DNA from: Candidatus Omnitrophota bacterium
Lineage (GTDB): Bacteria > Omnitrophota > Gorgyraeia > JAFGHF01
Reading direction: 5' to 3'
Length of the DNA stretch: 64,000 bases
Assembly: GCA_020341815.1 (NCBI GenBank)
Contig: CP070837.1
Location: 1,172,575 to 1,236,574 of the forward strand
Below the pieces are notes generated by a model, which had not been told where the DNA came from, did no database searches, and worked only from the letters and a program-made list of their open reading frames with translations. Shown one piece after another: positions 3,001 to 39,000 of the stretch. How positions within the stretch are numbered: position 1 is the stretch's first letter; each line of letters begins with the position of its first letter. The translations under genes were made by a program, and so were the position numbers.

Positions 3001-6000
3001 GGAAGTAGAAAAGACCTTTGAACAGCTTCGAATTGAAGCATTTAAAGTTGTAAGCGGAGTAGATTACCCTAGATGGCTGCCTGTTATTGTACCAAGACAA
3101 ACATCAAAGGTGCCTTCTAAAGAACCTGAGCAGCAAACCCAAGGTTTGCCCAATTCCAACGCTGGTAAATCTCAAAAGGGCTCTTCTCCAGCTATTATAG
3201 CTGAAGACCAAGTCCTATACGGTCCATCTGTCTTAAAACTTGGCAATAAAGTAGCAGAAGAACCTATCCGTAAGGCTATACAGGATTGGACCAGCTGCTT
3301 GATTCGCGGCCCGGCAACAATCCAGAAATTAGCTGAACGGATTTCGTCTGTCTTTAATCAAGAACCCACAACTGCAGAACCCTCTGCAAATGTGGGTCTT
3401 TTTGTGTCTGATAATGGCATAAGCAACCGGGGCGGGAATTCTTCCGCCGCCTCGGAGTTTTCTGCCCCGGTTGATGCCATTAAACATTTCGGCGTAACAG
3501 AGATCTCCTCTACCAACTCCTCCTCCCCCGCCCTGCAGACCTTGAAGAAAAGCTTTATAATGAAGCTGACAACCGGACTTATCGCTCTATGCATCGGCAC
3601 CAGCTTAGGAACATTCCTTAGCAACTCTGCGGTAGCAGCAGCCAGCCGCACTAAGGAAACGACAGAGATGCATTCTGAGGTTTCAGGTTCCATCTTGGCT
3701 CTTCAGAATAGACTATGGAGAGTGGATACCTTAATAACATATCTGGAGAATAAGGAAGCTTATGATGAAGAAGAGATAAAAGGAATAAGAGACTATTACA
3801 TAAACGTATTATTAGAAGATGTATTAGAGAAGGATGAAGAAACCAAGGAATACTTTAAGAAAAAGGTAAGAGGCTTAACTTACGATATACAAGGGTGGAG
3901 ATTCTACAGCCCTACCTTACCACACGAGAAAAAGGTATCTCTGCAGAGAGAAGCCAGGGCATTCATAGAGTTTATAAATGAGTATTTTGAGGTCTCTCCG
4001 GAAAAGAGTGATGCCGCCAGGGTAGAAAAATTTATTGGAGAAAAAGACCCCGAACCCGGAAAGATAGAACAGATAGGGTTGCTGACGAAAATAAAAGCCT
4101 ACCGCGATAGTATTGCCTCAAGAATACCCGAACAGGAAGAAGACCAGCCGGAGAAGCCAGCGGCAGAACAGACAGAGCCGGTAAAACAAACAACAGAAGT
4201 TGAGCAGCAAGAGCAGCAGTCTGAGAAGACAGAAGAAAAGACCGAAACAGAGCCCACAGAAGGCAAGGCTGAAGAGCCAACATCCGAGCCCGTTAAAGAG
4301 AAGCCAGCCACTACCAAGAGCAGCAGGAAGGCGCCAACTTCCCAGAGACTATACGCCCGTCCCACATGGGAAGCCGGTGAAACTCCCGATACGGTTATTT
4401 ATAGACCTGGAAACTATAAAAAAGACGGCCCGGATAGTAACGCCAATGGCTACACGGACAACACCTTAGAGGATGCCGCGCGACAGGTAACGGAATCAGA
4501 AGGAGACGAGCCTACTGTGCATGGGGTTGGCAGAAGGGCGCTTAAGATAGCAGAAGAGAATAACATTTCCGATCCAAACCTTATTTATCCTAAACAAGGA
4601 ATCATTATTCAAACAACCCCTGAAGCAGTAGAGAAGCTTACAGGAAAAACAGCCGACTCTCAAGCCGATGATACAACAGAAGGTACCGAAAAAGATCAGG
4701 ATGAGACAGAAGAGCTGACAGAAGAAGAAATCAAAGAGACAGCTGCCAAATTTGGCAAACTGGTTCAAAATCTTAATCAGAATAATATAGACAACATAGA
4801 GATTGACCTTAATAGCCTCTCCCCCGAGCTTAAAAAAGCCTTATCCAAGGAAATTAAGGAATGGCAGAAAGCAATAGATGAAGCTAAGCAGAAGATCCAG
4901 CAGGAAAACACTACCAAAGAAATTAAAAGCTGGATAAAAACAGGCCTTAACCCGGACAACGCCAACTTAGGCGAGACCAAGAGAAACATTCTAAAAACAA
5001 TTAAGAACTCCAGGTTACCCAAAGATATTAAAGACAAACTCACAGAAGAAACAAACGCCCAGTATAAAGAAGCTTCCACGCTTCGGTTAGAAGGCAGGAT
5101 AAAACCTATCGTAATCACATTTTGTAAGCTTGCAGGGATAGCAGTAGCCTTGATTTTGGCAGTGATCGGCTTATTTAAGCTGGCTAGAGCGCGCTTTGGC
5201 AAGAAAAACTTTCCACCGTTAACTGCAAATGCACCCCAGGCCAAGAATGAACCGAAATTCCAACTTCCCGACCTGCAGGCAAAGAAGAAGCTTGCGCAGA
5301 AGGGTCTAATTTTAGGCTTTATAGCTATTCTGCTTGGTCTGCCGATAATGCTTGGAGTGCTACCTCCGATGGAAGTGTTTGGTGCAAATCTTGGCCTTCT
5401 CCTGACAGCGGCGGGCCTGACTGTGACTATGTTGACGATATGTATATCAAGACAGTCCAAACTCGGAACATTAAGCCTGGGCAAGAGCAAGAAGGAAAAA
5501 GCTCAGCCATCCGAAAGTAAAACATCCGAGAATAAGGATAAAGCCGATACAAAGAAGAAAGAAGCAAAGTCAAAAATTTCCAAAGTACAAACAAAGAAAA
5601 GCCGGAAGGCCAAAGTTCTGATTGCCGGCCTATCCGCAACAGGTATTGCGCTTACTATCTGGGCAATCGATGTAGCCAATAAGATAACTAATAAATTAGA
5701 TAATGTTGGTATATTGCTGGCAGCAGCTGGTCTGGCAATAATACTTAGCGGCCTGCTAATCCTTAAGCTTAAGAAGCTTAAGGCAAGACAGCCTAAAGTA
5801 ATAAGCTTAAACATAGAGCCAGGCAAAGGAAAGTCCAAAGACAAAATAGACGGCCAGTCATTGCAAGAGAAAAAAGCCTTATTGCTCAGCAAAGGGTTAA
5901 CTCAAGATTATGTGAATAGTTTAAAAGAGGATAAATTAGAAAAGATAATTAAGCAATATGAGCAATGGGAAGGCGCATTAAAGAATGTAATTCAACAATT

Positions 6001-9000
6001 GAAAGATTTAAATGCAGAGGATTATGATTTGACAGCTGTTATAGGACAATTAGAACAACTATTATCAGTTGTTGGGACATATTCTCAAGGGGATGTTGTA
6101 AAGACACTTATTAACATATTGAATTTTGTATTTTTCGATAAAGGAAAGAATGCCGCGGCCGATAAAGCATATATTATCCTTAAGGATTATATCGAAGACT
6201 TTGGTAAAGGGGAAGTTTTTGAGCCTCAAATAGGAATGCTTTTTGATAAGGCTGTATGGGGAAAAATGGAGTGTGTTTATGCCTCAGAATCGGCTAAACA
6301 AGGGAGAAAAGAGGGCAAGATTTCATTAATAGGAGAAGTTGTCAGCTTAGGCTTCTTGATTATGAGAGAGATTAGGAATGCAAAAGGAAAACTTATAAAA
6401 GTCAAGCAAGTTGCTATTGTTCCGGCAAAAGTCAAATGTGTATCTTCCGAAGAATTAAAGCAGCCCGAGAAAAAGGATAGCAAAGAAAAATCCGAATTTA
6501 AATTCACAGCTAATAATAAAGAAGACAATATCCCCTTCCCAGCTAAAAGAAAATCAGGGGAAGCCTCAGGAGATGCTCAAACAGACAAAACATCCGAGCC
6601 CGAGGAAGAGGAAAAATCCGATACATCAGAACCAGAGGAAAAGCTTCCAGATAAGGAAGGCAGCACAGATAAGCCAAACGAAGAAATAGAGAATAAGCCA
6701 TCCGAAGACAAAATAGAGAATGCTGAAGAAGAAAAGGGAACCTCAGAAGATCCTCAAACAGACAAAAAATCCGAGAATAAGGAAGAAAAGGGAACTGCCG
6801 GAACCGATACATCAAAATTAAAGATTTCCAAAGCAGATAGAACTGAAAAGGAATGGAATGAGCTTGCAAAGCGCAAGGGCCTTTCGATTAGTTTATTCGA
6901 TTCAAATGGAGATAGGCCCGAGGAAGAGAAAGAATCCGATACAGCAGAACCAGAGGAAGAGCTTTCAGGCAAGGGAGATAGTACAGATAAAGTCGATCAG
7001 CCAGAACAAAAAATAGAGAAAGAGCTTTCAGGCAAAGAAGGCAGTGAAGAAATAGCATCCGAAGGCGAAGAAGAGGATGCTAAAGAAGAAAAGAGAGCCT
7101 CGGAAGATCCTCAAGCAGACAAAAAAACCGAATTTAAATTCACAATTAATGAGATAAAACCCTTCTCCTTCCTACCTAAAGAAGAATCAGATAATAAGCC
7201 AGGTGAAGAGAAATCCGAAGAAGGGGACTCAAAAGAACAGCTCCAAGACAAAGAAGAAAAGCCATCAGCAGAAATAACTAAAGACTTGAAAGAACAAAAT
7301 GGCAGGAAAGATATTATAAAGCAAGGCAATAAAAAACGAGTAAAAAAGAAACAAAAGAAAACTTCTTCTAAAACTTGGAAGAAAATAATAATTATTCTAG
7401 CCCTTATCCCAGCAATAATTATAGGTTTTGTTCAATACATTGCCTTAGAAGCCCCAGCTTCAATCGTTAATCCTTTAAATAAAAGAATCGAAGTTGGGAT
7501 AGAAAAACCGAACTTACCTATGTCTAGGCGCTTTTTAACAGCGGTAGATGATAAGGAAGAAAATGACCCTCTCGATAATGATATAGAGGACCTTTTTGGC
7601 CAGGAAGAACAAAATCTGATAGTTCGGCCTTTATCCCGGGAATTAAATCCCAATAACCTTTTAGCCTTTACCGAATCGCAATTTAATAAATCTCATAGCC
7701 CGAAGGTTATACAGATTGGAAAGAAGATAAAGGTAGCAGGATTGCACGATATACCCGGGGGAGATTACTATGAGGCATTGGAATATGGATTTGAGATGGA
7801 CGGTAGATATGTATTATTTAATGGTGAAATTCACCGTATTGTAGGCGATGATATTTATAATGACGGTAGGCTTGTAGGTAGTATTAGCGAAGACTATCTT
7901 TCCGATGGAGAACTTAATAATACAGCAATTCCAGACATAGTCGGGCTAACTGACCTTGAGGGGTCGATATTAGAAAAATTAATAAAGGATGATAAGATTT
8001 CTATTGTTTTTGCAGTCGGCCGTGACGACAGCATATATTCTTCTATTGTTGATGACGATATGATTATTAGAGGTCCGAAACCGGACTTTGAAGATTATCA
8101 AGATATAGTTATAATCAATGGCAGGCCGATAGAAGTAAAAATAAGATTAGTTTTTTCCATAACGGCTTTCTTGGATAGTTTGAATAAATTTGAAGTTATA
8201 TATGTTTTCTCTCATTCCCGATGCGGCTTAGGATTCCATTTTTATAATGATAAACATCCTGTATATATGAATCGGGGCAGAAAAATAAATAGTCAACAAA
8301 AGGTAATCGGAATAAAAAGCAATAGTATATATCTGGAAAGCTATCTTAAGCATGGTATCATCTCAAAGGATAGAATCGTAGGAAAAACAGAGAACGGATA
8401 TACTCTAATTAGCGTAAACGATTCAGATTTAACTAAAGTTGTTCCTTACAAGGGCTATCAGCTTATAATAGCAGATTCCTGTAAAAGCAGGAAACACTTC
8501 TTAGATGATTTGAAACGTTTGAGAAAAGGCTTGCCCACCAGCTTCATTCTGAGCCAAGACGATAGTCAGGCCACGGGCAATTTTGATCAGGTTGTAGGAA
8601 TTATTTTTACAGGAGGAGACGTCGATACATTAGTAAACCAGATTAATTATAGAGAAGGCAAAGAGATATGGGATTATTATGAAATAGAAGAGACTATGGA
8701 TGTTAGTGATGGCAAGAGTGACCGGGGTAGGGCTTCTTCCGCCGCCTCGGAACCTGTCCCGGTTACTGCCATTTTCCCTAACTCCACTATCGAAGATACA
8801 TACGGCTCAGTGGTTGTGGTGAAAGGAGATTCAGTGCCGCTGAATGACCAGCCCAATAGAGATTTAGCCTCTTCACCTGCAACAGAGGCAGTTGCGGATA
8901 AGGTGCAACCGCAGGAAGAGATTCTGAGGGTTTCTGCTGAAGATAGAACAGAGTTTGATGCATTAAAGGCATATTACCGTGCTTTAGTTGAGGCAAGAGA

Positions 9001-12000
9001 ACAGGCTGAAACGGATGCAGGTGCCTGGGAGACGATAAGCGATATAGCATATAATATCTATTATAACCTGGTTGTCAAATGGAGAGATAATACGAATAAT
9101 AGAACCTTACATGTAGTCGGTAAAAGCTTAGATCATGGCTTCTTAAGAGAAATAGAATTGAGAAATAGAACATCAGGAGTAGTTAGCAAGTATGATGTTT
9201 ATACTCGTAGAGCTAAGGCTTTAAAGAATCCTGCTTCTGAAGAAGAGCTTAATTCACATCTGAAAGAGCTGCGGGATAACACAGACCAGCTTATAACGTC
9301 TATGGTTTTAGTAATTGACTATTTAAGCCAGGATTATCTGCCAGCAAAGAATCAAACCGCAGAGCCCACGGATAAAAATAAGCTATTAGGGATGTATGGT
9401 AAAAAGGACACAGGGCTTTTGTTAAACCTACCTAAGATAGAGGAATCTTTAATTGCAGCAAGGGCATCTTCACCCGGAGCTAATCAGGAAGATTCAATTA
9501 CAGAAGCTTTGGCAAATAACGATTTTGATCCAGAATATCTTAACACGCTGTCTTTGCAAGAAAAAGAAGATATTTTAGCCAGAATGCAGAAATTCACCGC
9601 TCCGTTAAATGATCTTATTACCGATTTAGAAAATGAAAAGAAACAGCCCGAAGGATTGCTTAAGCAGCTTAAAAAATTAATTAAGAATTTCAGTAGCCCT
9701 GCCTTTGTTGTCGTTGAGCCGTTATTCGATTCTGTTGGTTCCATACTTGTAATGAGGGTTTCCTCCTCTCCGGCAACAGTGTCTCATGTGGAAGAGAGCG
9801 GAGGACAAGATAGCAACATAAATCCTATTACAGATGAACTTGAGAAACACATAAGGAACATAGTGGAAAAGATTAGAAAGGGAGAGTTGCCAAATTTAGA
9901 GGTAAAAGTCTCTAGCGAAGAAAGCGGAGGGCGTTCCTCTTCTCCGGTTAAAGGCCAGGAAAGATTGACAACAATGTTGATTAACTGGACAAAGGCAATG
10001 ATTCTTAGCCTATTCATAAAGGCGAAGCTGCGCAAGCTATTGTTAGACAGAGAGGCTCAAGGCAAGTTAAACCTTAGAAGTTTAATAATTAAATGGGGGG
10101 CGGGGATCCGCTGGTACATAGACAGGCTGAAAAAATCCACTGCGGGACCAAGAGGCAAGACCGGAGTAATACTTGTAATAGACAAAGAAAGACCAGGCCG
10201 ATTAAAAGATTTTAACAAAGGGGATATATTTGCAGGACAACTGAGCCTGCCGGTAGTGGTATTTTGTGCGCAGGCCTATGCAGAATACCTTAAGAAGACA
10301 GGGCTGGGAGCGTTTGTAAGCGGGGATAACCGCTTTTATTCCAAAGAATATGCGGATATGTTCAGCCGCGTATTGATAGGAAACGGCATAACCGTATATA
10401 GAGATAAGTACTTGCAAACCACACCAACGCCGGTAATATCCTATATGGCATTTTATTTTGAAGATGTAGACACAGGAGTGAGTGTAACAGCCAGCCATAA
10501 CCCGCCGGACCAAAACGCAATAAAGTCAGCTAACCGGGATGGAGGGGTGGACACGGATGAAAAGTCAGAGCAAATAGCAAATATAGCGAATGATATGTAC
10601 GCCCATCCCGATGACTATGCATTATATATTGGGGATGCTCGAAAGGCCAAAGAAGAGGATGCCTTAGAGATTTATTATGATAACTATATTAAAAAAGTTT
10701 TTGGCACTAAGTTTGCCCAGACATTGTCTAAAGCCCATAGGCAAAAAGGAAGCGAGTTTATTATAGATGGCTTGGGAGGAGTGGCCGGACGAGCAGCCGC
10801 ATACTATTTGAATCGGCTGTTTAATGGTAATAGCTGGAAAGACATTGTCACAGTATTAAATGCGAAAGCAGACCCGACAATGTTAGGGATACACAGGCCA
10901 GACCCCTCAAACCCCAAGACATTGGAGTATTCAGGAGTATTAGAGACATTGGCAGGGAATCCGAGCATATTGATGTCCGTGACAGCAGATATGGATGCAG
11001 ACCGCACGGGGCCGGCAGTAATTATACCGGAAAAAGATGTAGTCAAGGCAATGACGTTCGGCTTATTCGTGACTGAGATGAATTTCGAAGGCAAAAAGGT
11101 GCACATAGTGCGCTTTACGCCGAACCAGATATTCACCCTGTTGGCATACGAGAGGATATTGCAGGCCTTTGAGAAGTTAATAGGGACCAGGGATGTAGAT
11201 GAGATACTGCAGGCTATAAAAGATAAGAGAGTAGACCCCTCCAAGATACATGTAGTGATGTCACTGCCCACAACGAGGCTGATGTATGCATTGTGCAGAT
11301 TGTTTGGGGTAACCCTGCATTATACGGCAGTAGGATTTAAGAATTGCGGCAAGGTAGCGAAAAAGATAGAAGATGAAGACCCCGAAGCAATAGTGATAAT
11401 ATTAGCCGAAGAGAGTGGAGGAGCGATAATCGGTCCGTTAGAGCGGGGTGAAAAAGGAGAAGGCATACATAAAGATAAAGATACATTGGTGCTTGCATTT
11501 GGATTATTTGAGACAGCAGCCCGCTTAGCCTTAGAAGATAGCAGTATGCTTGAGTTCTATATAGAAATGGCCAGCCGATTGGGAGGGCTGTTCTATTATG
11601 CGCGAGTAGATGCTTACTTGCCGACACAGGAAAAGGCCGAAGAGATTAAGGATCCCCGGATAATACAAGAGGCAGCAGAAGCAAAACAGAGAGCGATAGG
11701 CGCCTTTATGGAATTAGAGAATAGTAACGAAAAACTAATTAATACTTTTGGTAAGGAAGATCTCCAATATGAAGAGGAAGAATTTACGGTACCCAATACC
11801 TTAATATTTATAAAGGAGGAGAATGAGTGGGTGCTGTTAGAGCCTCGAGGCAGAAGGCTCAAGTTTAGCGATAAGACCTCCTTGGAGATATTCCACTTGA
11901 CCGAAGGTGCAGGCGGCGGCCCTGTAATTACACTTTATGATACCGAAGGAAGGCTGCTCTACTGGACATTAATCAGGCCTTCGGGGACAGAGTCATTAAT

Positions 12001-15000
12001 CAGAGTATATTTAGAGATATTCGAGCCCTTTGATAACCCGCAGCCAAGTCATCTATACAGTTATTATGCATTCCTGTTTGAGACATTGTATTTAAACGTA
12101 TATTGCCCGGAAGAAGACGGCCCAAGCTACTGGGACTTGCACGTTGATGATGTAGAACAGAGGTATTGTTCCTCCCCCGTAGCGAAAATCAAGGCGCTAA
12201 AGAAGAAAGGCCAGGAGGACGGTACGCAGAAGGTGAAAGTAAGCAGAAAAGTAACCAAAGACTCTAACCGAAAAGAAGAACCTTTGGAAGAATGGTATAA
12301 GGTTCTAGGTATATTAGGAGGTAATATTAAAAAGGGCAATAACAAGGTTTCCTCTCCGGCAGAAGCTAGAGAATACCATGAGAAAGCTGCAAAGCTTTTT
12401 AAAGAAAGAAAATTCGATGAGACCATAAAAGTCCTTACTAAGATTATTAAGCTTAATTCAAGCGATTCAATTGCTCATCACAATCGTGGAATAGCTCGCG
12501 AGAGAAAAGGCGATTTAAAGGGAGCGTTGGAAGACTTAAGAAAAGCCTGGAACATTAAAGCAACTGCGCTTAAGATGAAGAAATCCTCTTCTCCCGCAAA
12601 TGGAGAAAAACTTAATCCAACAGACATAAGGGCGGAACTCATAAATAGCACAGTGGTGTTCTTAACCAGCCGAAAATGGACAATGATGAGAAAGGGAGAT
12701 GAAGTAGTTATACGCAAATTGTCTGAGAAGCGCTTTGGAGAATTATATGCGCGTCATCCAAAAGGTATTCGAGACGCAGGCATATTCGTAAATTATGCTT
12801 GGCAAGATGAAGGACCGGGAGCGTTCAATATAGATATAGTAGAAACATTAGATCCTATAGCACTACTTTTGGCCTTTAAAGGAAGCCTTAAAGATGAGGC
12901 CGAAATCGAATTAGTAACTGCAAAGATTGAAAAAATTAAGGATGGCTTCAATAAGGTGAAGCTCTCCAGCCCGGCAGAAAATCGGTCTATGGAATTAATG
13001 ACTAACATTGTCTCTGTAGGCGCAGTGATTGTAATTGGGGCTAAGCCTCAATCAGTTTCCAGTCCTGTGTTTAAGATGTTTGCAAAAAGAGATGATAAAG
13101 ACATTGGAGCAGATGCTGTTAATAAGAAGACTTATAAGCAAACTGATGAAGGAAAGTTTAAAGTTGTAACTTTGCCTTTGGAACAAAAGAAGTGTGAAGG
13201 AGGAGGTTGTCCAGAAAACCATGGCGCACAGAATAGCGAAGTCGAGTTGCTTAAAAAGGCTATCGATACGCTGATAGACTTTAGGCTTGAGTTGCTACTT
13301 TCCGAGCCAAAAACAAAAACTGAATGTCGGCAGAAAATAGATGCAATGACGAGAGATTTAGAAGAGCAGTTTGGAAATCCCACAAAAGCTAAAGAGTTTG
13401 CAGAAAAAACAATTATGAAACAGGAAAGAGAGAGGCTTTTGCCTATAGCAGAGAAAAAGATATATTGGAAAATAAGAAATAGATTAATGGAGAAATTAGA
13501 TAAAAAGAACGGAACTATTGACAAAGATGATTGTTTAAACATATTACAAGGAATTGTTAATCAAAAAACAAAAATATTGGCTGAAAAGCAATTTAGAGGT
13601 GCACTTCTTCTGGGAGAAATAGGAACGGGAATCCAAGAATTAATAGGGCTTTTAGTTGTCGATGAAGCATTAAGGAGCGTATTCTTCAAGATGCTTCCGG
13701 AAGAAATCAAAAAGCAAGTTGAATTTGAAAAAGAACAAAAAGCACAACAGCCAGCAAATGGGCAGGGTTTAGGTGGGGTAGAGGTAAGAGATATGCTAAA
13801 AACGTTTGCAAAAAAATTGGAAGAGAACTTAGCGCAGAAATTTGACAAAAGATTAGGGCATCTGGAAGAAGAAGTGAAAAACGGAACCAATGACGTTGCG
13901 GAATTAAAACAAGAAGTGAAAAACGGAACCAATGACGTTGCGGAATTAAAACAAGAAGTGAAAAACGGAACCAATGACGTTGCGGAATTAAAACAAGAAG
14001 TAAGAAACGGCAAGCCGTATTGGGATGAGGGATCGGATAGGAAGCTTATTGATGATGAGATGAAGAAATTAAAAGAGGAGGACCCCGTCCGCTGGGCCGA
14101 CCCTCATAAACGGCAGGCAGAAGCAACTAAAAGACTTATAAAACAAGGAAAGCTCAGGCTTGAGAATTGTTTTGATAATACTATCCCCAATGATACATTA
14201 AGAAGAGAAGTAAAGCAAGCAATAAAAATGAAAAAAGAAGAGAAAGAAGACATAGGCGAAGAACTGACTTGGTATGATGTTGAGAAAATTTATAATGAAC
14301 TTTTATTAGAATTACTTATGGATGAGAAGATAGAAAAAGAAGATGCTAAAAAATTAGGGCCTTTGACGGCTTATGAACTTACTTTGGGAGAACTTGAAAA
14401 AACCATTCGTTTCCAGAAGAAAGATATGCCACATTTTGGAATTCTTTGTCCTACAAAAGATGGTGGAAATCATTTTGTTAATATTTTGGGAGTTAGAATA
14501 GATGAAAAGAGAAGGGTTTATATAACAATTTCAGAGTATAATACCGGTGACGATGAAACGTGTCGTATAAGGGAAATTGAACTCTCAGAATTTGCCAAAG
14601 AATTAGGAATGGATAAGTTTATTATAATTGCCAATAAGAAGGATAAAAGGATATTCAGGAAGGAACTTCGCGATGACGACAAAAAAGAGCTAATGAGACC
14701 CCATGGGCCTGGAACCAAGACCACCGGTCCCCAAGGCAGCAAAACAGGCAACGGAACAGGTGATGGAACAGGCGGTGGTAGTGGTAAAGGAACGTCTGGT
14801 CAGGGCAAAGGTGATGCCACCCCGCCTCCTTCAAACGGTTTCGGAACATCCGGAGCCGCAGCAGGCTTTACAGGTGCTGCTGCAGGTTCTTCGGATGCCG
14901 GGACGGATGCTGGCAACACAGGCGATGTTGACAATACAGGCGATGCGGGCAGCACAGGCCGTGATTTTCCAAAAGACGTTACTAATAGCAGTAAGCCAAT

Positions 15001-18000
15001 AAATACCATTCCATTCGATACCGATACCCATCAGGGAAGGGCCGATGCGGATAATAATAACCCAGGCGCAGAAGTAAATGGTAATAAGGGAACGTCAAAT
15101 ACAGAATTGGCAAAAGCTGTAGTTGCCAGCCCGGTTGAGCAGACTTTAGGTGGAAAAAGGGACGTAGAAACAGATAGATTTTTTGCTACTAGAGAAAAAT
15201 TTAGGGGTAGATCAGAAGGCTTATCTCCGCCTACTGCTTCAAATAGCACTTTAGAGCACAGAGCCAAATCCTCAATATCCGCCAGTCCCGCAAGATTAGT
15301 TTATCCCCTAAGGCCTCGCCATGAGGCAGATAATCTACAGTCCGCAGTTCACGGAACAAAAATAACCGCCCATATCCCCAATACGCACTACACAATATAC
15401 GATATTGCCTCCAGCCCGAGTATTATTGACCTTAATGAGGAAGTCCAAAAGTTCTTAAAAGAAGCCGTTAAAGATTTCATGGCTAAAGTAAGGGAAATTT
15501 TGGCTAAGAAAGAGGATATCCAATCCACAATTGATAAAATCAATGCACTCACAATAGAAGGAGAGTTCATTGATCAGATCTCTACAGAGTTATTAAGGAA
15601 ATCATTGGCTGATGAGTTAACAGATTTACTTAATGGACTGCAGTCATGCGGACTAAATATCCAGAGCGGAAAAATACCTCTTGAAAAATTACTTTCTAAT
15701 TTGGATGAATTTGCAAATGTAGAAAAACTATATATAGAAACCACAGGCTATATTAGTATACTTAATTCAGTTGCCATTTTAAGAAAGAGTCGTTCTTTTT
15801 CCAGTCCTGCCGAATGCAGCCCTGTTTTAACTCAGCAAGCTACTTTTTCACAGTTTTTGGCCAATCTGCTGAATAGAGAATCGGCTGATATTTCTCAAGC
15901 AATAAAGCGTTCGCTTTATAACTTCAGATGCAGATGCGAAAAATACATATTGCAAAGAGCGATAGATTGGTTTTTGAGTCTCAAGTATAAGCTATTATCT
16001 CTATTAGGAATTTTAGGAAATAAGAAAAAGCATTACGGAGATAGCGGGAAAGAAGCCGATAATGAAATAAATGCACTTGAAGCAAAAGGTATAGATCTCA
16101 GAAACCCGCGGGCTCCTTCAATGAAGCGTTCGCTTTATAACTTCAGATGCAGATGCGAAAAATATATTCTGCAAAGAACGATAGATTGGCTTTTAAGCCT
16201 CAAGCACAAGATACTATCTTTATTGGCAAATTTAGGAAATAAAGAAAAATATTATGGAGACAGCAGCAGAGAGCAGACCGACAAGAAAGTAAATATACTC
16301 AAAATAAAAGGCATAATAAAAAGAGTTTTCGGAGCACCGCGCGCTCCTTCCGATCCGCAGAAGCTCAATAATACTAATAATCTTGGCACCATAGGTGCAA
16401 ACGCTAGCGGTCTGCCTGTTTTGCCAAACAGCACCTCTATGCCCTTTACTGATCCATTTGAAGGCAGAGAACCGGCGAATATTCCTCCAATAGCAGGAGC
16501 TTCGGCCAATATAGAATATAGAAGGAATGAACAGAAATTAGTAATAGTTAGTAGCCCTGCAACAGCCGAAGGCCACCATAACGGTAAAATGAGAGGATGG
16601 CGGGTCTATAGGGAGGGTATCTTAGAATTAAATATAAATATACGTAAAGCAAGAGGTATAGGTACAAGTCTCGGAGGTCCGCAGGCTCCTCCTTATAGCT
16701 CTCCTATCTCAGTAAACCAGAGAGAGAATAAGGAGGTGTCTTATGGAAAGAGTACAGCGTTTGGAATTACGGGAATTCGAGAGAAAGATGCGGAATATAG
16801 AAGAAGAATGGATGGCCCTGGAACTTCAACGTCGGCGCAAAGCCAGGAAGGAGAAGGAAAACATTATCCAGGAAGAGGACCGTTAGAAACATTACCACCG
16901 ACAGAAGAAAAGGGCAATAATAATCCTAATGGCCGCATGGCCCGGGGCTCAAGCGGAAAGAGTCCGGCTGCTATAGATGATGCTCTGTGCATACAAGCTT
17001 TAACTAAGCTTGCCTCTATATTAGAAGCTATCCTCAATGCTGTTATGCAGGTGCGGTATATTGTATACCGCGGACCTCCGCAAGCTATCTCTACCTATTC
17101 CCCTACCTACTACCTACTACCTACTACCTACTTATTAATTAGCCCCATAGCTACAACTTCATTAGAAGAAGTTGCGGTTATGGGTTTTGTTATTTCCGGT
17201 TATTCCTCCCCAATAATCGTCGCCGCAGTAGTTGCGGTGCGTTTATATACATTATTCAATAATCTATTGCAAATGGTGGCGCTGACAGTAGCAAGCCTCA
17301 TTGTGAGGCTTACTTCTATCACCGCCGCCTCGGTGGGAGAACCTGTGGGCGCCGCCATTGCAATTAAACCAGTAGTGAAAGGAGATGGGTTACAATGTCA
17401 GGAGCCGAAGTCAGGAGTATCAAGTTTGATCACATCGTGGATTCGCCAGATTACAGGTTTGTATGCGTTACTATTGGCGGCAGGACACGAAATCTGCGAA
17501 TCTATAAAGACGGGATGGTTGAATCTTATGAGCACGGACGCTTTATCCAGCTTCCTAGCGAACTGGCAAAAGATATTCGTGCCACTCTCAGCCGTACGCC
17601 GAACATCCCTACCTTCTCACTCAAGAACGGAAAAGGCCTTAGCGAATAAGTTACTCGCTGAGGCCTTCTCTGCCTCCTCCCCGGCAGATGGTGAAGATAA
17701 ACCTAAAGTGAATCTTCCAAAAGAAGTGCTTGAATATTATGAGAGCCTTTCTGAACCAACAGAAGCAGCTTTAATCTCAGCTTGGAAAAACCGGGGAGGT
17801 AAGTTCGTACAAAGTAAAGACGTACATAAAGCTCTTACCGAAAGCAGCATGAGACCGAAAATAACAGAACCCCCACTTAAGAAACAAGAAGATGAGAAGC
17901 AAGAAGATGAGAAACAAGAAGAGGGGGTAATAGAAAAAATAAAAAAAGAGCTCATAATAAGCATAAGATGTTTTGCTATAGAAAGGATAGAAGTAGAAGA

Positions 18001-21000
18001 CCTTCTTAAAGATAAAGAAAAACAGCTCAAGAAAATAGGGGTTCTAAAGCGTTTATTAATAATGTTGCGTACTGATATAGGCAAAGAAATAAAACTACAA
18101 AAAAATGAGACTATCAAAAATATATTAGAAACTATAGGGGATTATATACAAGTTATATTAGATAATGAATTTAATTTAATAAAAGAAGGATTAGAACAAG
18201 CGGGAATAATAAAAGCTGGATTGCGGCTTGAAATGGGGACAAAAGATGAACAAACCAAGAAGAAAAAAGCAAAGCAAGAATTAAAAGCAATAGCGCTTAA
18301 TATAGCAGAGCAAAAAGCAAATTTAGTAACAAAAAATATACCGTTGATAGGGCAAGCGCTAATAGAGCTAGAGCAGGCCATAAAAGGACAAAACTCTACC
18401 TCCAGCCCTGCGCATTATAATATACCGCTTGTGCAGCATTCCTCTAGAAGAGAGCCTGGGAAAGTATCAACCACACTCACTAAGCAACAGCTTAGAAAAA
18501 TAAAAGAATTGAGAAAGACGGCATCCCTCGACAAGCAAAAAAAGATTCAACGATTGATGACTAAGCATTGCAATAAAGGTGACACAACAGACGCGAAAAA
18601 ATTTATTACACAGATGAAAATCACAATATCCAAACCGGATATCACCTCCAGCCCCGCACAGAAAAAGCCCGAAGAGCAAAAGATAGATATAGAACGCATT
18701 ATAGAATTAGTTAAAGAAGTAAGGCTAGGAGAATGCTTGGAGCATTCGGCAATATTAATTGGCGTATTGAGAAGATTAGGGGAAAACGCCCGGCTTGTAG
18801 GCGGTTATGAATCCTCCGAAGCTAATCTTCCCGACCACTATTATGTTCTTAGGGAAAATGGGGACAGGATAGATATCTGGCCAAGAGAGACAGAAGAAGA
18901 AAACTTTGATGAGTTTTTCGCTGAGGCACAGTTACGACTCGCTTTAGATAATCCAAAAATAGATGATGTGATTAACAAAGTCTTAAAGAAGCTCTCCAGC
19001 CCCATCGATAAAACAATAGATAGTCAAGTTATTGCATTTTTAGGCGCCCATTTATGGAACAATATTATGGCTTTGCTCAAAGCCCGGCCGAAATTCCTTG
19101 AGGATTTCTGCTTTAGTTATCGTTGTCATGAGGGCTGGGTGCCAGGGAAAAAAGGCGAAAATATCTGCGGCGCTATTAGGATGGTAACTATAAATTCTGC
19201 TGCTTATCTCCCTATCAATAAAGAAGCCAGCATTGTTCGACCTTCCTCCAGCCCGGTTAAGCAGAAACTTGGAGCTATTGTCTTGATTATTATGGGGATT
19301 ATGGTTGGTTTTCCGGGATTGCTTTTTGCTCAAGGATTAGCTCCTGCTGCATTAACCGCATCAATCTTTGGCAAGGCTATTATGGGGACAATAGGGGTTG
19401 TCTTGGCAGGAAAGCTCCTCAAGAACTTATATGTAGCGCGAAAGTATAAAAAATATACATCCAGGATAAATAAGCTTTTGAGGATAAGCGAAGAAAGCCC
19501 AGAGCGATTTGCCGATGAAATCGAATCGCCCGAATACAGAGATATCTATGAGCAGGTTATGCGTTATTCCGAAGATAACGCAGAACAGAATGAGACGTTA
19601 GCGCAACTACAGGAGTCTTATTTTGAAGCCAGGGAGAAGACCGTTGAGGAAATAGAGGAATTGCTGATGGCTTTTACTTTTCCTCAGCCTTCTTTAGAAA
19701 TGTGGCGGTTGAGTCTAAAAATTGAAATTATGCCAGGTTTTTCTAATAAGAAAGAGGGAAATACACGGGATGAGCTTTTAGAAAAACTTTCTGGCTTTGC
19801 CAATAGATATCCGGATATTTTCCTAAGTGTATTAGAGGAGAAGTTCGGCATAGAACTCCTAAGAGGTAATTTTAAATCAGGCGATTATATGCAAAGATTG
19901 CAAGAGCTTTATTTCAATATTAGAAACAGGGCTTATGTTTCTGCAAAGAATAAGCCTGTGCGTATTGCCTGGCATGTTTGGGATTTTTGCATCTCCTGGA
20001 CGTTGCGTTCCGGATTGGCTTTAGCGAAAGGAATTAGTTCCCGGATTCAAAAACTATCTGACGGAAAGCCAACAATAATTATAAAAACGCTCATAAAAGG
20101 ATTAGGCGATATAATTCAAAGAGCTAAAAATCTCTTTGCCGAAGCGCAGGCAGAAGAAGGTTATTGGAAAAAAGCAGAACTTGTCGTTAAGCTTAGTTTT
20201 TGTATTTCTTCTCTTGCTGCTGTTGCCTGGTATAACTGGGGCTGGAAAGGCGCCTTAATCACTGCAGTTGGCTTGCCTATAGGTTTCCCTGCAGCACTAA
20301 TAATGGCTATATTTGTTAGCGTTAAGATAATTCGATGGGCATGCAATCATCCAAAGCTGGCAACCACTGGAGTACTTTTGGTTATGGTGGGGGGACTTGG
20401 TTTATTCGGGGAGGCATTTGCAACGCATCCTCAGGCTTATCTGCCCCATCCGGATGGTCCGCAGGCATCCAGGAGTAGAGCGGGCAATATAGGAGACAGG
20501 ATTGCGCTTAGGGGGCCGGATGAGGCTGGCGAGGTTGTCCCCAGAGTTGTTGAGCCGACTGTAAAAGGCCAAGATCCGGAACGCTCCGGCCGTTCTCCCC
20601 CAGATAACACAACTACTCATTCAGATATATCACTTAACCCTAGTCAAACCCCTGCCGAGGAAACGTCTTGGCTCAGCAAAATCTTGGATGTTTTGGTGCC
20701 TGATGTTGAGGCAACTGAGCCTGAGGTGAATAAAGGGGCAGAGAAAACAAGCTTCTTTAAAGATTTCTTTAATAAGAAATACGATGTTATAAAATTGTTT
20801 AGGAATATATATATTGGCGATTGGCATCATTTTGGGATTTTTAGACTTGTGGGAAAGCAAGAGTACGTTAAAGATGGTAAGAAGGCTTATATTATAATGC
20901 TGCGAAAGATAATAGGGAAGATGCCGCCAATAGGCGGGTTCCATATATCCGGTAATACTTCAGAAGCGATTATTTTCGTCAATCAGAAACCAGATAAAGA

Positions 21001-24000
21001 CTGTGCTTGCGAAATGAAAGCTATGGCAAGCGGAGATCGCTTGAAGATACTCTTGGAAATAATGGATGATTTTCATCGCGAGGCATTAACGGGTAAAGGT
21101 ACATATTGTAAATTTACTTCAGAAGGCGAAATTCACTGGACAGAAATAGATGAATTTACTAAGGTCGATCCTATTTTGATGAATAATTTAAAAGCTCTAG
21201 CGCTAGATCTACAAGGTAAGCCTTTCGCCAAGCGTGAACTTATATATACAATAGAGGGAATGATTAAATCAACAGCTGATGATTACGAATTTACAAAACC
21301 ATTGGCCGGAAAGAGCGTCGAAGAATTGATCAAGTTAATAGAAGGAAATAAAAGTAAGCATGAGTTTAGACATATAATAGACGCATGGATTAGTGATTCT
21401 GAATTGTATCTTACAGAAAGAATAGAAGAATTGAGAAACTCTTTTGGCAATAGGTCAGATGAAATTATAAAAAGAGTTATAGTAGAATTGTCCGGTTTTT
21501 TGAGCACACTGATGGATCCTTCATATACGCGTTATCAATTCTGTCAAACATTCTTAGGAGCAATGCATTGCAGGAACATAAGTCAGCGCAATTCTAATAA
21601 TGGCTCTCATTATAGCGTCAGCCCCAATGATGCCGCTCATTTTATCATCATCTTGGCAATGATGAATTGGGCTAAAGGAGAAAAAGATATTACCGGTAGA
21701 TATTTCAACGTGAATGATTGGAGAGAGACATTACGTCCTTTAAGTGATGAGCAAATAATACAATACGCTAAAGAGATTTATGAGTATATATTCCAAAGAG
21801 AAATGCTCATGCCCGAGCTTGTAACAACATATGAAGCTAAAGGTATGTGCTTCATCACCTCACTGGGTAGTGCAGAGGCGGCTGAAGCGCAGACACCGGA
21901 TGAAACAAAGCCACCTATTAAAGAATGGATGATAGAACTATATCGAGAAAAACTCCAAGAGTTAAGAGACAAATTTAATAAGAAAAAGATTTCAAAAGAT
22001 GAATTTATTTCCAGACAATTAGGTATAATTTTAAAACTAGCTAATGAAATAAGATTTGAACGAAAGGTTGCGCAGAAACAGCAGGATTGGTGCTTTAGAA
22101 CAAAGTTAGATTTGCGGATATTAGGAGAGCAAATAGGATTTAGAGTTTTTAAATATTTAATCATTTTAGATAAGAATTCTGATGGGACATTGTCAGTTTT
22201 CCCGATAGATAAAATATTCGATTTAGTAGAAGAATTTACGAAAACAGAAATTGCTATATACAGATCTTACGAAAAAGCGAAACTCGCTAACTACAGATCT
22301 TACGAAAAAGCGAAACTTGCTAACTACAGATCTTACGAAAGAGCGAAACTTGCTAACTACAGATCTTACGAAAAAGCAAAGTTGGAGATTTATAAGGAAA
22401 TAGAATACAGTCAAATTTATAAAGACAGAATAGCTACTATAGAAATAGTTTATAGAAAAAAAATAAAAGCTGTAGAAGTTACTTATAGAGAAGGAATAAA
22501 GGCTGCAGAGGCCACTTATAGAAAAGGAATAAAAGATGCAATTGCAGCTTATGACAATGCAAAAGAGACAGTGCTTCAAGAAATTACTAATAAAGCAAAG
22601 CAGTTTATTATTAAAGCTAAACAGTCAAATAACGAGGCAATGCTGATTCAAAGAGGACAACCCTGGGGAATTGGCCTAAGCGGATTGGTATTATTAACTA
22701 TATTATTTATGCCAATGATGGCCTTTGGAGGAGAAACTGAGGTATCCTCATCACCAATTAAGGCTAAATTCAACATGGCGGAGGTTGTCAAATGTGCAAC
22801 TCTGCTAAAAACAACCAAGGCTAATTTTATAAGAGTATTAGCAGTTGGGTTGGGGTTAAGTCAGATTGGATGGGTTTGGATTAAGTCTGAAGAAAAATCG
22901 ATAATACAATTCTTTTTGAAACCCCTTTTAGGGGGATTGGGAATAACGATAGTCTTTTTAGTAGGCTATTATCTGGCAACAATTTATTTTTCTAATCAAT
23001 GTGAGAACTATCTTGAAAAAGCAAATACTTTTATTATGTCAAAACAGCATCAGAAGGCAATTTTGGAATGTAACTACGTTATTAAATTAAAAAGATTTAT
23101 TCATTCAAATCTTGAGGGATTAGCATATAGCCTTAGAGGAAGAGCATATTTTGAATTGGGGCAGTATCAAGAGGCTTTGCTTGATTACGATACAGCTTTA
23201 AGACTTATTGTTGATGTTCCCGAGCTTGCTTGTTTTGTTCCATCTCTCTATGTTAGTAAAGGTAGCACACTTTTTCATTTAGGAAAATTGCAAGAAGCTT
23301 TAGATAGTTGCGAGCATGCAATTGAATTTGATCCCAATTTGGGCCCGGCATATGTAAATAGAGGAACAGTAAAGGCTTCTTTGGGAAATATTGAAGAAGC
23401 AAAGAGAGATTTTGAAAAGGCAGTAAGACTAGATTCTAAATTACAGCAGGAAGTAGAAAAAACAAAGAATTATTTAAGAGGTAAGGGTATAGATATTTCT
23501 TCTTCACCGGTTAAGATAACCGACTCAATGAGTACCTATGCGGTGAGTCAGATTTTGATGGGATATAGGCTTGTTGAAATAAATCCGCAGAACATTCAAT
23601 ACATTAGCAATATCACCTCTTCCGGTTTAATCCGCGGGTCGGATACTGCGGAAGTAGATAGCATTAAAACCTCCCAAATATCCAACCTTCCGTATCCTGC
23701 CCGCAAATATTCTGTAATTCCAGTAAATGAAGTAATAAAGGAAAAGAGTTGTTCTTCTCCGCTTACACAAGATAGTAAAAATAGCGGTAAATTTGCTCTT
23801 TGGCGCGAGTCTATTGAGAATTATATTGAGAGCTACTTAGATTTTCACCCCACCTTATCAAAATATTTAGGCAAAGTTATTCCTTTTATAGAAGTAGCGC
23901 TTTTGGCAACATTAGTCGGGTTAATGGGAGTAGCTTTATTAGGAGGAGCTTATTTATCCTGGATAGTTACAACAGCCCTGCTGGGAGGTAAAGCAGTAGC

Positions 24001-36000: not shown

Positions 36001-39000
36001 CACTAAAATAGATATTACAGGCAGGGTTCCCGTATCTATTATGGTAGATGAACAGGGCAACCCTGTTTACTATGTAGGCCTGGGTATTAGCGAAGAGAAC
36101 TCAGGCTCGGACTTCATAAATGGCCTGCAGATTGACCCCGAAGGAGAGACTGTTTACTACGCAAGCGGCCGGGCCGTGTTTAGCTGGGATAAGCAGAGGA
36201 AATATAATACCAGGATAAATGCCAACTTTACTCAGGATGATAATGTCAGTGTGCACTTAAGCCAGGACCTCACAAAGCAGTGGACCATAGACTTAGGCGG
36301 TAATTGTTACTGGGAGGAGAAAGAGGAACTCTATGACGGCACGGTTAAGGTCACCTGGAATGCGCCTTCAGAGAGTAACAAGAATAAGCTCAGTATTAGC
36401 GCCGGCTATGACTATAGAGAGTCTTTACAGCCCCAGGGGAGAATAGAACATACCTCTCTCACTAACAGTATAGTTATCCGAAATACCGTTCTGGGCATAA
36501 GGCAATTTTCTCTCCAGACAGACTATCAGTTGGAAGAGGAGGAGATTAGTCATAGGGTAAGCATCAATAAGCTCCTGCCCGCCCAGATAAACTGGAGCGG
36601 CACAGCAAAGTTTGATTATTATGGTAATCTGATTTATTCTACTTATGTGGAAAAGAACTTTGACGGCGCTTCTCTGCGCCTTGGAGTGAAAGGCGACAAA
36701 GAGAAAGAGGATGTGCGGCCTAATCTTAGACTGACTCACGGCAACTTTAGCTTAAAGGGAGACTTTAAAGATGAGTATAATTGGGGCGTAGGAATTAATT
36801 ATCGCAATATCGAGCTGGGGAAAGGGTTTGCGGGTACGGCCAGCATCGAAGGAGGAGAGGCGGCAGGACAACCCTGGATAGAGGCCGGGTTTGATGTCTT
36901 TCCTTTATTAGGAAAGTTGCGGCAAGAGAAGTTTAGCCTGCTTCCTCTGGATTTGAAAAACAAAAGACTCAATCTTTCCTCAGGTAACTGGAATACAGTG
37001 GGAGAGGATGCCGCAATTAAACAAGAGACCACAGATTTGCGCCGCCGGATATATGAGCAGCAGGATGAGCTGCAGCGCAGAGGAGAAAAGGTAACTTTAA
37101 ATAAGGAAGATGTAGCGCTATTAAATGAGCTTCGGGATATAGCGGGCAGAGGCTTTGCTCCCAAGGATGTTTTGGCTAACCTTATCGTTAATAAGAAAGT
37201 AGATGCAGACGAGCTCAAAGACCTCTTTAGAGACTGGGCATTTTTAGCAAAGGATACGGAGTTAAAAGACTATTTAGGAGAGAAGATAGATATTCAAAAT
37301 AAAGTGCACCTGGCTGAACTGTTCTTCTGGACAGGGTATCTGCGTCAAAATGGCGAGACAAAGACAAAGGACAGGATTATTGAATTAAACGGGGCCAGAG
37401 AGCAATTAAAAGATTCATTTAAAGAAAGAAAGGGCAGCAAGCAGTTTAACCCGGCCAATGTCAGGGATGCAGAAGAGCTCTGGTTACTGATTGGCCTGGG
37501 CGAAAAATATAGTCAGGACCTGGTTAAAGTGATATTGCGCTATCGCAGTTCCATTGAAAAGATAACCGGCGTCAAGCTGGATATTACTGCTCAAGGGGTA
37601 GTAGATATTTATCTTAACTGGGGAAGTTATCTCCAGCAGGAAGAGCAGAAGATTGAAGGGCAGGGCTTAGATGAAGCGCAGGAGAAAAAGGCCAAACAGG
37701 CCTTGAGCAAGAAGATACGGAATATTGCCGATGCTGAGACTACGCATTTACTTGATAGCGAGGCGCGTAAACAACCTTCGCAAGAGCTTATTGCCCTATT
37801 AGATTACCTGACTAAATTAGGCGTAGACGGGCTAAAGATATTTGCTAAAGTAGACCGCAGCAAGCTTCTTCCTTACGAAATGAAATTGCAGGCGGCAATA
37901 GCGTTATTAGAGGCCAAAGGCAAGGTCAAGAACATACCCCGCTATGTCTTTATATTGGAAGAGCTTTATAATATAGCCCAGGGCAACCTTGTTATCCAAA
38001 ATGACCTTTTCCCTGAAGGATTTGCTGCGGAGGAGGTTTCTGCGGAGCAGGCGACAATCTTTACCGGTTTAACTTATGCGGTGTATAGAGAGGATATCTC
38101 TGCCGACCATATTCAGAATGTTAGTTATCTCTACAGCCAAATTCAGAAACCCCACTATCCAGCCGCATCTGTTTACAATAAACTATTCATAGAATTAAAC
38201 TATTGGACAAAGGTTGGCGAATTCTTAGAGACCAGGAAAGAAGGAGCATTAGAGACAATAGCCGGCCTTTTAGCGGAAGATAGCAACCTTGCCTTTGGCA
38301 AGACCGAACTTACCATTGACCGGGTTCTCTCGGCATTAGGCCTTAATGGCTCCAGGAATAAACCTGTTACCAAACCCAAACAGCAATTACGAAAACAAAA
38401 GGCAGCTAAGGCAATACCGACGCAAGAGAAGAAAAAAGAGGCGGTCATCGCCAGCTTGCGTAGTAACAAAGAGAAAGAATTGCCTCCTCAAAATATGCCT
38501 CTCCATCTATATGAGGAAGCAACGGAGAAGGAGGAGCCCTCATTATTTGCTCAATTCCTCTCCGCAATTAATCCTTTCTCGGCAAGGCTTGCTTATGGGG
38601 ATGAGTTGCGCTTGCCTCAGGTTGCCGTAGAGGGAAGGACTATTCGCGTTAATGGCCGGCCTTACCAGATAAGGGGCCCTAGCTATTTACCGGTTCCTAA
38701 GGGTGAGGATATTAAGAGCTTCTTGTTTGATTATGATACGGTTGTCCGTGATATTGCCTTGATGAGGCAGTTGAATAGCAATACTATTCTCACCTATCCC
38801 ATAGAGGATGAAGGGATTTTGAATGCCTTTGCTGACGCAGGAATAAAGGTTATTATTGATTTTGCCGATTATGGTGATAGATATGTTGATTACATCAATC
38901 AATTTAAAGGCCATCCGGCCATTCTGTTGTGGTGTTTTAATGACCGGGATACTGCTTTAGAGCAGGCAGCGCAAACCGCGCATCAGCTTGACCCTGAGCA

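Follow-up and report, generated by a model that had tools for sequence, protein, structure and literature searches.

Giant open reading frames (ORFs) are common in the phylum Omnitrophota (Seymour et al., 2023). Passages of a 2023 preprint name phosphoglucomutase/phosphomannomutase (PGM/PMM) among the less common domains of the giant proteins termed Archaeovorins (West-Roberts et al., 2023; 10.1101/2023.11.21.568195), and passages of a 2026 preprint (10.64898/2026.06.07.730766) report the families PF02878, PF02879, and PF02880 in 88, 65, and 64 long Omnitrophota proteins, respectively, and describe a co-occurrence module called "Module 2 sugar metabolism." We analyzed a stretch of 64,000 nucleotides (nt) from a Candidatus Omnitrophota bacterium (assembly GCA_020341815.1, contig CP070837.1, positions 1,172,575–1,236,574; hereafter the window), which carries an α-D-phosphohexomutase module embedded in a giant ORF. 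A mutase embedded in this way is a further example of a known phenomenon, and the occurrence of PF02878 in 88 long proteins means that the term "highly unusual," applied to it in a first-pass annotation of the window, is overstated. We infer that the module, a cassette within the giant ORF, is a complete and probably active α-D-phosphohexomutase belonging to a long-form clade, with the interconversion of glucose 1-phosphate (Glc-1-P) and glucose 6-phosphate (Glc-6-P) as its likely reaction; activity and substrate are both deduced from sequence, modelled structure, and the gene neighborhoods of relatives.

The ORF is a single frame of 21,333 codons with no stop (nt 2–64000, forward strand) and is open at both ends of the window; the longest open stretch in any other frame is at most 400 amino acids (aa). 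A hydropathy script found 39 hydrophobic 19-mers with a Kyte-Doolittle mean of at least 1.8. The ORF thus has at least 64 kb and 39 hydrophobic helices, against the Archaeovorin definition of more than 20 kb and many transmembrane helices, and the earlier description of the mutase as lying inside a membrane-associated polypeptide that exceeds 21,000 aa holds. Like the Archaeovorin and "Module 2" proteins, the window ORF has a PF02878–PF02880 module in a membrane-associated frame of tens of kilobases, and it also has methyltransferase and TPR domains and weak NUDIX and glycoside hydrolase (GH) matches. Unlike them, this 64-kb partial ORF yielded no GT5, GT1, or SecA-like domain, and indeed no other glycosyltransferase (GT) and no peptidase, in a domain search.

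The module shares its fold, domain order, and active-site loops with the solved canonical phosphohexomutases (PDB entries 1tuo, 2z0f, 2fuv, 9du5, and 1wqa, and P. aeruginosa PMM/PGM, 1k35), but identity in structural alignments is 14%–20% and the module is about 240 residues longer. Its features are as follows (cutoffs are Pfam gathering scores; single-letter residue numbers such as T39 follow the numbering of the structural model).

nt 10025–12175 (aa 3342–4058), forward strand: complete long-form α-D-phosphohexomutase module, one folding unit, delimited by AlphaFold2, Foldseek, and homology limits
nt 10139–10156 (aa 3380–3385), forward strand: TAGPRG loop, the active-site arginine loop of domain I, found in all copies; T39, G41, and R43 invariant
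nt 10238–10591 (aa 3413–3530), forward strand: Pfam PGM_PMM_I (E = 2.2e-23; 82.9 bits, cutoff 22.5)
nt 10487–10504 (aa 3496–3501), forward strand: phosphoserine loop TASHNP; T155, S157, H158, and N159 invariant
nt 10493–10495, forward strand: codon of the catalytic Ser3498, within the TASHNP loop
nt 10715–11011 (aa 3572–3670), forward strand: Pfam PGM_PMM_II, below its gathering score (E = 2.3e-4; 22.1 bits, cutoff 29.3)
nt 10988–11005 (aa 3663–3668), forward strand: metal-binding loop DMDADR (Asp3663, Asp3665, Asp3667, Arg3668); D322, D324, D326, and R327 invariant
nt 11222–11521 (aa 3741–3840), forward strand: Pfam PGM_PMM_III (E = 5e-5; 23.8 bits, cutoff 20.7)
nt 11405–11422 (aa 3802–3807), forward strand: sugar-binding loop AEESGG (Glu3803, Glu3804, Ser3805); E462, E463, S464, and G466 invariant
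nt 11942–12016 (aa 3981–4005), forward strand: Pfam PGM_PMM_IV (E = 3.2e-5; 24.3 bits, cutoff 23.1)
nt 11975–11995 (aa 3992–3998), forward strand: phosphate-binding loop RPSGTES, followed by LIRVY (to aa 4003), aligned to the loops of 1tuo (RASGTEPVVRIY) and 1wqa

All four PGM_PMM families are matched in canonical order, with I, III, and IV above their gathering scores and II just below. The best NCBIfam match is Arch_GlmM (2e-30) and the best PDB sequence match is 1tuo (2.9e-9); the module's database matches are far beyond chance. The superfamily's four loops (T/S-A/S-S-H-N-P, D-x-D-x-D-R, (G)E-x-S-G, and R-x-S-G-T-E) are all present. The first-pass annotation had recognized the TASHNP, DMDADR, and AEESGG loops, and they are where it placed them; the phosphate-binding loop that it suggested seeking further downstream is RPSGTES. 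The extent that it gave, nt 10150–11640, covers domains I–III and leaves out domain IV. The EESGG pentapeptide alone is not diagnostic, because short linkers just upstream of the module, delimited by the tripeptide SSP, contain it twice more (nt 9791–9805 and 9917–9931; aa 3264 and 3306); a rough composition-based estimate puts its expected number at about 0.03 per ORF.

An AlphaFold2 model of aa 3342–4058 (717 residues) had a mean predicted local distance difference test (pLDDT) score of 91.7 and a predicted template modelling score of 0.92, and both of its ends were confident. When the model was compared with the PDB by Foldseek, the top matches were exclusively phosphoglucomutases, phosphomannomutases, and phosphopentomutases (among them 2fuv, 2z0f, 9du5, 1tuo, and 1wqa; E = 1e-18 to 1e-20, target template modelling (TM) scores of 0.68–0.78), and the best 50 of the 73 matches with E ≤ 0.001 were all structures of the PGM/PMM type (target TM-scores of 0.63–0.78). 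The query TM-score against the solved enzymes is 0.48–0.58 because of the module's added elements. The model, the Foldseek matches, and the Pfam matches agree on the four-domain, heart-shaped fold of the α-D-phosphohexomutase superfamily, so that structure prediction, proposed earlier as a way to expose an unrelated fold, exposed none. The fold and the family assignment are secure.

A search of 5.8 billion sequences showed that the closest proteins are about 705–720 aa long (38%–44% identity; E = 1e-112 to 1e-154). A sharp drop follows this long-form set, to canonical enzymes of about 475 aa (about 27% identity; E = 1e-19). From the first helix to the last residues, the long-form proteins can be aligned with the window segment. 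Both have elements that the ~475-aa enzymes lack, namely an N-terminal helix, a C-terminal helix, and insertions that follow the GxRG and metal loops or lie within domains III and IV (about 70 aa in domain IV). Free-standing members (for example P0015, from Armatimonadota GCA_046292385.1) align end to end with the module and have the same insertions and catalytic loops. When 1.84 billion cluster representatives were searched with a profile, E fell below 1e-100 for only about 27, followed by a gap to 1e-43, and the long-form clade is therefore rare. Several of the 27 are 1,208–4,143 aa long with the module internal; those of 1,939–4,143 aa add to the embedded copies at the loci described below. 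Family-profile searching of the PDB revealed no solved structure nearer than 1tuo (3e-19). In their source records the long-form proteins are named "hypothetical protein" or "phosphomannomutase."

Conservation within this clade argues that the module is a working enzyme. In an alignment of 57 long-form and canonical sequences, made before the AlphaFold2 modelling, 41 columns are invariant, including all of the catalytic residues, and the window copy keeps every one. In addition to the residues listed above, they include R651, S653, G654, T655, E656, R660, and Y662 of the RPSGTES-LIRVY segment, and K167, G437, F438, and K439. By what is established for the superfamily, the conserved residues are the phosphoserine, the three Mg2+ ligands, the Glu and Ser residues that read the sugar, and the clamp on the distal phosphate. 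The window copy has all five loops intact, as do six of six other Omnitrophota copies tested; five of the six belong to ORFs truncated at the end of a contig or locus, and one is in the complete 1,208-aa protein of locus L004. The tested copies share only about 42%–55% identity, and copies in unrelated giant ORFs 37%–55%; it is because the catalytic residues are kept across such divergence that a working enzyme is favored. The first-pass annotation had left the choice between a genuine enzymatic module and a repurposed binding or scaffold domain; the retention of all catalytic residues here and in every embedded homologue fits the former better.

In the mechanism that we propose, phospho-Ser3498 would phosphorylate a hexose 1- or 6-phosphate, and a bisphosphate intermediate would form, which would flip and return its other phosphate to the serine. 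Mg2+ would be bound by Asp3663, Asp3665, and Asp3667, the sugar hydroxyls would be read by Glu3803-Glu3804-Ser3805, and the distal phosphate would be held by Arg3992, Ser3994, and Thr3996. These steps are established chemistry for α-phosphohexomutases.

To place the module in context, we used 27 loci (L numbers) from scans of genome and metagenome collections. In high-GC metagenome-assembled genomes (MAGs; Armatimonadota, Actinomycetota, and unclassified; 64%–69% G+C), the long-form mutase is free-standing, encoded by a separate gene of 724–812 codons; its surroundings are unremarkable and in some cases include an alpha-amylase or response regulator. A response-regulator receiver domain is fused to the free-standing mutases P0010 (849 aa) and P0012 (858 aa), and another is encoded two genes downstream of a long-form mutase (L002:8859–9482); this association hints at regulation of long-form mutases by phosphorylation. 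The closest relatives of the module come from Omnitrophota MAGs (42%–55% identity), and a neighbor-joining tree unites the Omnitrophota copies in one clade. At loci L005–L008, L017, L020, and L003/L019, the module lies inside ORFs that run off the locus or contig at one end or both, with visible lengths of 1,105 aa (L003), 1,239 aa (L019), and up to at least 7,368 aa (L020). The single closest relative, at L004:8792–12418 (= L018), is a 1,208-aa protein with 55% identity from Omnitrophica GWA2_41_15 isolate Hainich-Omni-XXVI; its gene is surrounded by housekeeping genes, and the next one downstream encodes an S8 subtilase.

Homology to the free-standing proteins of about 715 aa and to the other giant ORFs starts at aa 3321–3371 and ends at aa 4031–4094 (most often 4055–4063), with the exception of two loci cut by a contig end. 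When the whole window protein was compared with the sister loci by tblastn, the mutase module was shared and the flanks were unrelated, the sole exception being a GH2-like module. Because only these modules are shared, the mutase behaves as a cassette in otherwise unrelated giant ORFs, which on our interpretation supports the view of the giant protein as a chain of former whole genes. The GH2-like module (nt 38615–39772; aa 12872–13257; weak Pfam Glyco_hydro_2_C match, 9e-5) is shared with L008:6236–7783 (42% identity) and L019:9854–10528. In L008 and L019 the two modules stand in a different order from that in the window, which suggests module shuffling. A second copy of the mutase and internal duplications were sought within the window ORF, and none was found.

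The ends of the cassette coincide with a short peptide motif. In the window ORF, SSP is the first-ranked over-represented tripeptide, with 35 occurrences against 2.8 expected (Poisson p = 3e-26). The counts at other loci and the two sites that flank the mutase are as follows.

L008: 25 SSP observed, 1.3 expected; first among tripeptides
L007: 11 observed, 0.8 expected; first among tripeptides
L006: 7 observed, 1.0 expected; second among tripeptides
L020: 17 observed, 1.0 expected
L003, L004, L005, and L017: 0 observed, 0.1–0.4 expected
nt 9935–9949 (aa 3312–3316), forward strand: upstream junction motif SSSPV; the motif precedes the module by 25–45 aa in L007, L008, and L020
nt 12167–12181 (aa 4056–4060), forward strand: downstream junction motif CSSPV, in the context RYCSSPV, one residue past the end of the free-standing homologues

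An alignment of 78 sites gives the consensus [S/A]-S-S-P-[V/I/A], and nothing beyond it is conserved. Its codons vary freely, so that what is conserved is the peptide, and we rejected conservation at the DNA level. The motif stands on both sides of the mutase module in four giant ORFs (the window, L007, L008, and L020). On the downstream side, the motif lies one or two residues past the end of the free-standing homologues (..KY), and its contexts in the other three ORFs are KYISSSPV (L008), KYASSSPV (L007), and NYCSSSPV (L020). L006 has a single site, where the module begins, and lacks one past its end, P0127 has an A[AS]SP variant, and in L008 the motif also brackets the GH2-like module. No SSP motif occurs between aa 7918 and 18394 of the window ORF. 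Near its C-terminal end, SSSP[AT]TSSSPVTSLE occurs twice (nt ~62369–62400 and ~63491–63525; aa 20790–20800 and 21164–21175). Strings resembling Tat or Sec signals follow some of the motif sites. A membrane helix follows the motif in 9 of 95 cases against 4.4 expected (p = 0.03), a weak enrichment that we do not use as evidence. We suggest that the motif may be an inter-module junction or a processing site; it might equally be a site of modification or a simple linker. Passages of the 2023 preprint note that information on cleavage points is lacking (10.1101/2023.11.21.568195). Term searches of the two giant-gene preprints returned no SSP motif, and "motif" only in the title of a cited reference; the same searches and one section gave no statement of a full-length long-form clade identity, sharp cassette boundaries, or a bracketing motif.

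The ORFs of relatives point to a metabolic setting for the mutase. A 4-α-glucanotransferase (MalQ-like, Glyco_hydro_77, 3e-162) is directly upstream of the module at L006:5201–12451, with a HAD hydrolase downstream; at L020:7451–14656, a family-20 glycosyltransferase (OtsA-like, Glyco_transf_20, 3e-66) is upstream and an HD+RelA_SpoT module is downstream; and at L007:7451–10000, a HAD_2 hydrolase is upstream. These neighbors resemble an enzyme set for α-glucan and trehalose metabolism and the stringent response on one polypeptide. The EESGG sugar loop and the MalQ-like, OtsA-like GT20, and HAD neighbors are our reasons for suggesting Glc-1-P and Glc-6-P as the substrates, in α-glucan and trehalose metabolism, where the mutase would supply the step from Glc-1-P to Glc-6-P between α-glucan breakdown and trehalose-phosphate synthesis. 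This setting is drawn from the ORFs of relatives and not from the window ORF. The neighbors agree with the "sugar metabolism" module described in passages of the 2026 preprint (10.64898/2026.06.07.730766). The first-pass annotation had pictured an enzyme acting on envelope or prey glycans, a role that the MalQ-, OtsA-, HAD-, and RelA/SpoT-like neighbors do not favor. Phosphohexomutases act on monomeric sugar phosphates.

Several observations weigh against an active mutase with this role in the cytoplasm. No characterized member of the long-form clade was found. The NCBIfam equivalog cutoffs were not reached (Arch_GlmM, 85–106 bits against 439; pgm, 49.6 against 778), and the long-form relatives P0015 and P0124 likewise fell below every such cutoff. 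We rejected assignment to GlmM, Pgm, PMM, or CpsG, as all scores were far under the curated cutoffs. The model has one weak spot, an insertion of about 23 aa after GPRG with a pLDDT of about 51. The window flanks contain no recognizable sugar-metabolism neighbor: Pfam at E ≤ 1 gave only TPR. Finally, the positive-inside rule applied to the helix at aa 2462 places the module outside the cytoplasm, and the 1,208-aa L004 protein begins with a classic Sec signal peptide (MNFTKTKNFKKIASLFVAVIFLCNTILPNACFA, followed by AEAF). An exported phosphohexomutase would be odd.

The lack of an equivalog match leaves room for a phosphotransferase with another main reaction, either a glucose-1,6-bisphosphate synthase like Slr1334 (CDD cd05800) or a mutase for another sugar phosphate. 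A Slr1334-type protein makes glucose-1,6-bisphosphate from fructose-1,6-bisphosphate (Neumann et al., 2022; PMC9426568), and the module has the EESGG loop in common with such synthases. Its nearest canonical relatives are, besides Thermus 1tuo, "PGM/PMM family" proteins of about 475 aa from cyanobacteria and Chloroflexota, whose place in cd05800 we infer. Identity to these short relatives is only about 25%–27%, they lack the long-form insertions, and the MalQ and OtsA neighbors of the sister ORFs suit a plain step from Glc-1-P to Glc-6-P; we regard a different main reaction as distinctly unlikely. A non-catalytic remnant serving as a binding or scaffold domain would accord with the clade-specific insertions and with embedding in a mostly orphan polypeptide, but we consider it very improbable, since every catalytic and ligand-binding residue is kept at 37%–55% identity in unrelated giant ORFs, the pattern expected under selection for catalysis. 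The exact match between the module and the extent of a free-standing gene might also raise the suspicion that misassembly or a sequencing error had joined such a gene to its neighbors. There is next to no chance of this, given 21,333 codons without a stop, the same embedding in independent assemblies (L005–L008, L017, L020, and P0122–P0127), and a common peptide junction motif written with varied codons.

More weight attaches to the question of where the mutase is located, on which the evidence conflicts. The nearest strong hydrophobic helix upstream of the module is the following, and the next one downstream is at aa ~5726.

nt 7385–7441 (aa 2462–2480), forward strand: strong hydrophobic helix (Kyte-Doolittle mean 2.73), with 8 Lys/Arg among the 15 preceding residues and 2 among the 15 following

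The helices at aa 1769, 1797, 1872, 1902, and 2462 have an alternating, self-consistent Lys/Arg bias that would place outside the segment from aa 2481 to ~5700, and the module with it. The enzyme, unchanged in fold and chemistry, might then operate in the periplasm or at the cell surface, on sugar phosphates released from prey, which we consider possible but doubtful. Its attractions are the pattern of these five helices and the Sec signal peptide of L004, which the tree places together with the window copy. Passages of the 2023 preprint propose such a prey-sugar role for glycolytic-type Archaeovorin domains and report that TMHMM gave "extracellular" for the PGM/PMM domains, a result that its authors themselves doubted (West-Roberts et al., 2023; 10.1101/2023.11.21.568195). 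Against it, our topology comes from a hydropathy script and not a trained predictor, and hydropathy and Lys/Arg counts are contradictory between loci: in L008, L020, and L006, the first helix past the module has its Lys/Arg on the module side. The L020 module, moreover, shares a helix-free stretch with a UDP-glucose-dependent GT20 and with HD+RelA/SpoT. GT20 and RelA/SpoT modules need cytoplasmic nucleotides. The enzyme also needs a bisphosphate activator, unexpected outside cells, and the free-standing homologues have no signal peptides, some bearing receiver domains. A further reading takes the giant ORF as a polyprotein of whole former genes joined by [S/A]-S-S-P-[V/I/A], from which the mutase (aa ~3317–4056) would be cut out at the flanking junctions, yielding a separate enzyme about 740 aa long that might be exported like its L004 relative. 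The over-representation, varied codons, and bracketing position of the motif speak for this reading, which we think unlikely. Our preferred interpretation remains the probably active long-form mutase carried as a cassette.

Elsewhere in the ORF, recognizable domains are sparse. Near the start of the window there is a Methyltransf_11 (SAM-dependent methyltransferase) domain (1.3e-13; nt ~1454–1801, aa 485–600), and near the C-terminal end there is a weak NUDIX match (8e-4; aa ~20927–20960). TPR repeats are also found near the C-terminal end, and one repeat is just downstream of the mutase (nt 12473–12547, aa ~4158–4182, forward strand; TPR_1, E = 3.7e-6). PDB sequence searches returned nothing credible for either flank of the module, and aa 4353–5730 had no homologue among the 5.8 billion proteins. 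A stretch of about 10,000 aa (nt ~24250–54640; aa ~8080–18213) lacks strong hydrophobic helices and SSP motifs and is almost devoid of Pfam matches; from about nt 32000 its G+C content is 0.42–0.47, higher than at both ends of the window.

The module is one more metabolic enzyme within an Omnitrophota giant protein, and what it adds is a rare long-form phosphohexomutase clade for which no characterized member was found. As a discrete cassette with sharp ends, it supports the idea that giant genes grow by the stringing together of whole genes. The junction motif and the signal peptide on the closest relative, L004, are the leads most worth following. The motif offers concrete sites that bear on the question, posed by the 2023 preprint, of whether giant proteins are cut into pieces.

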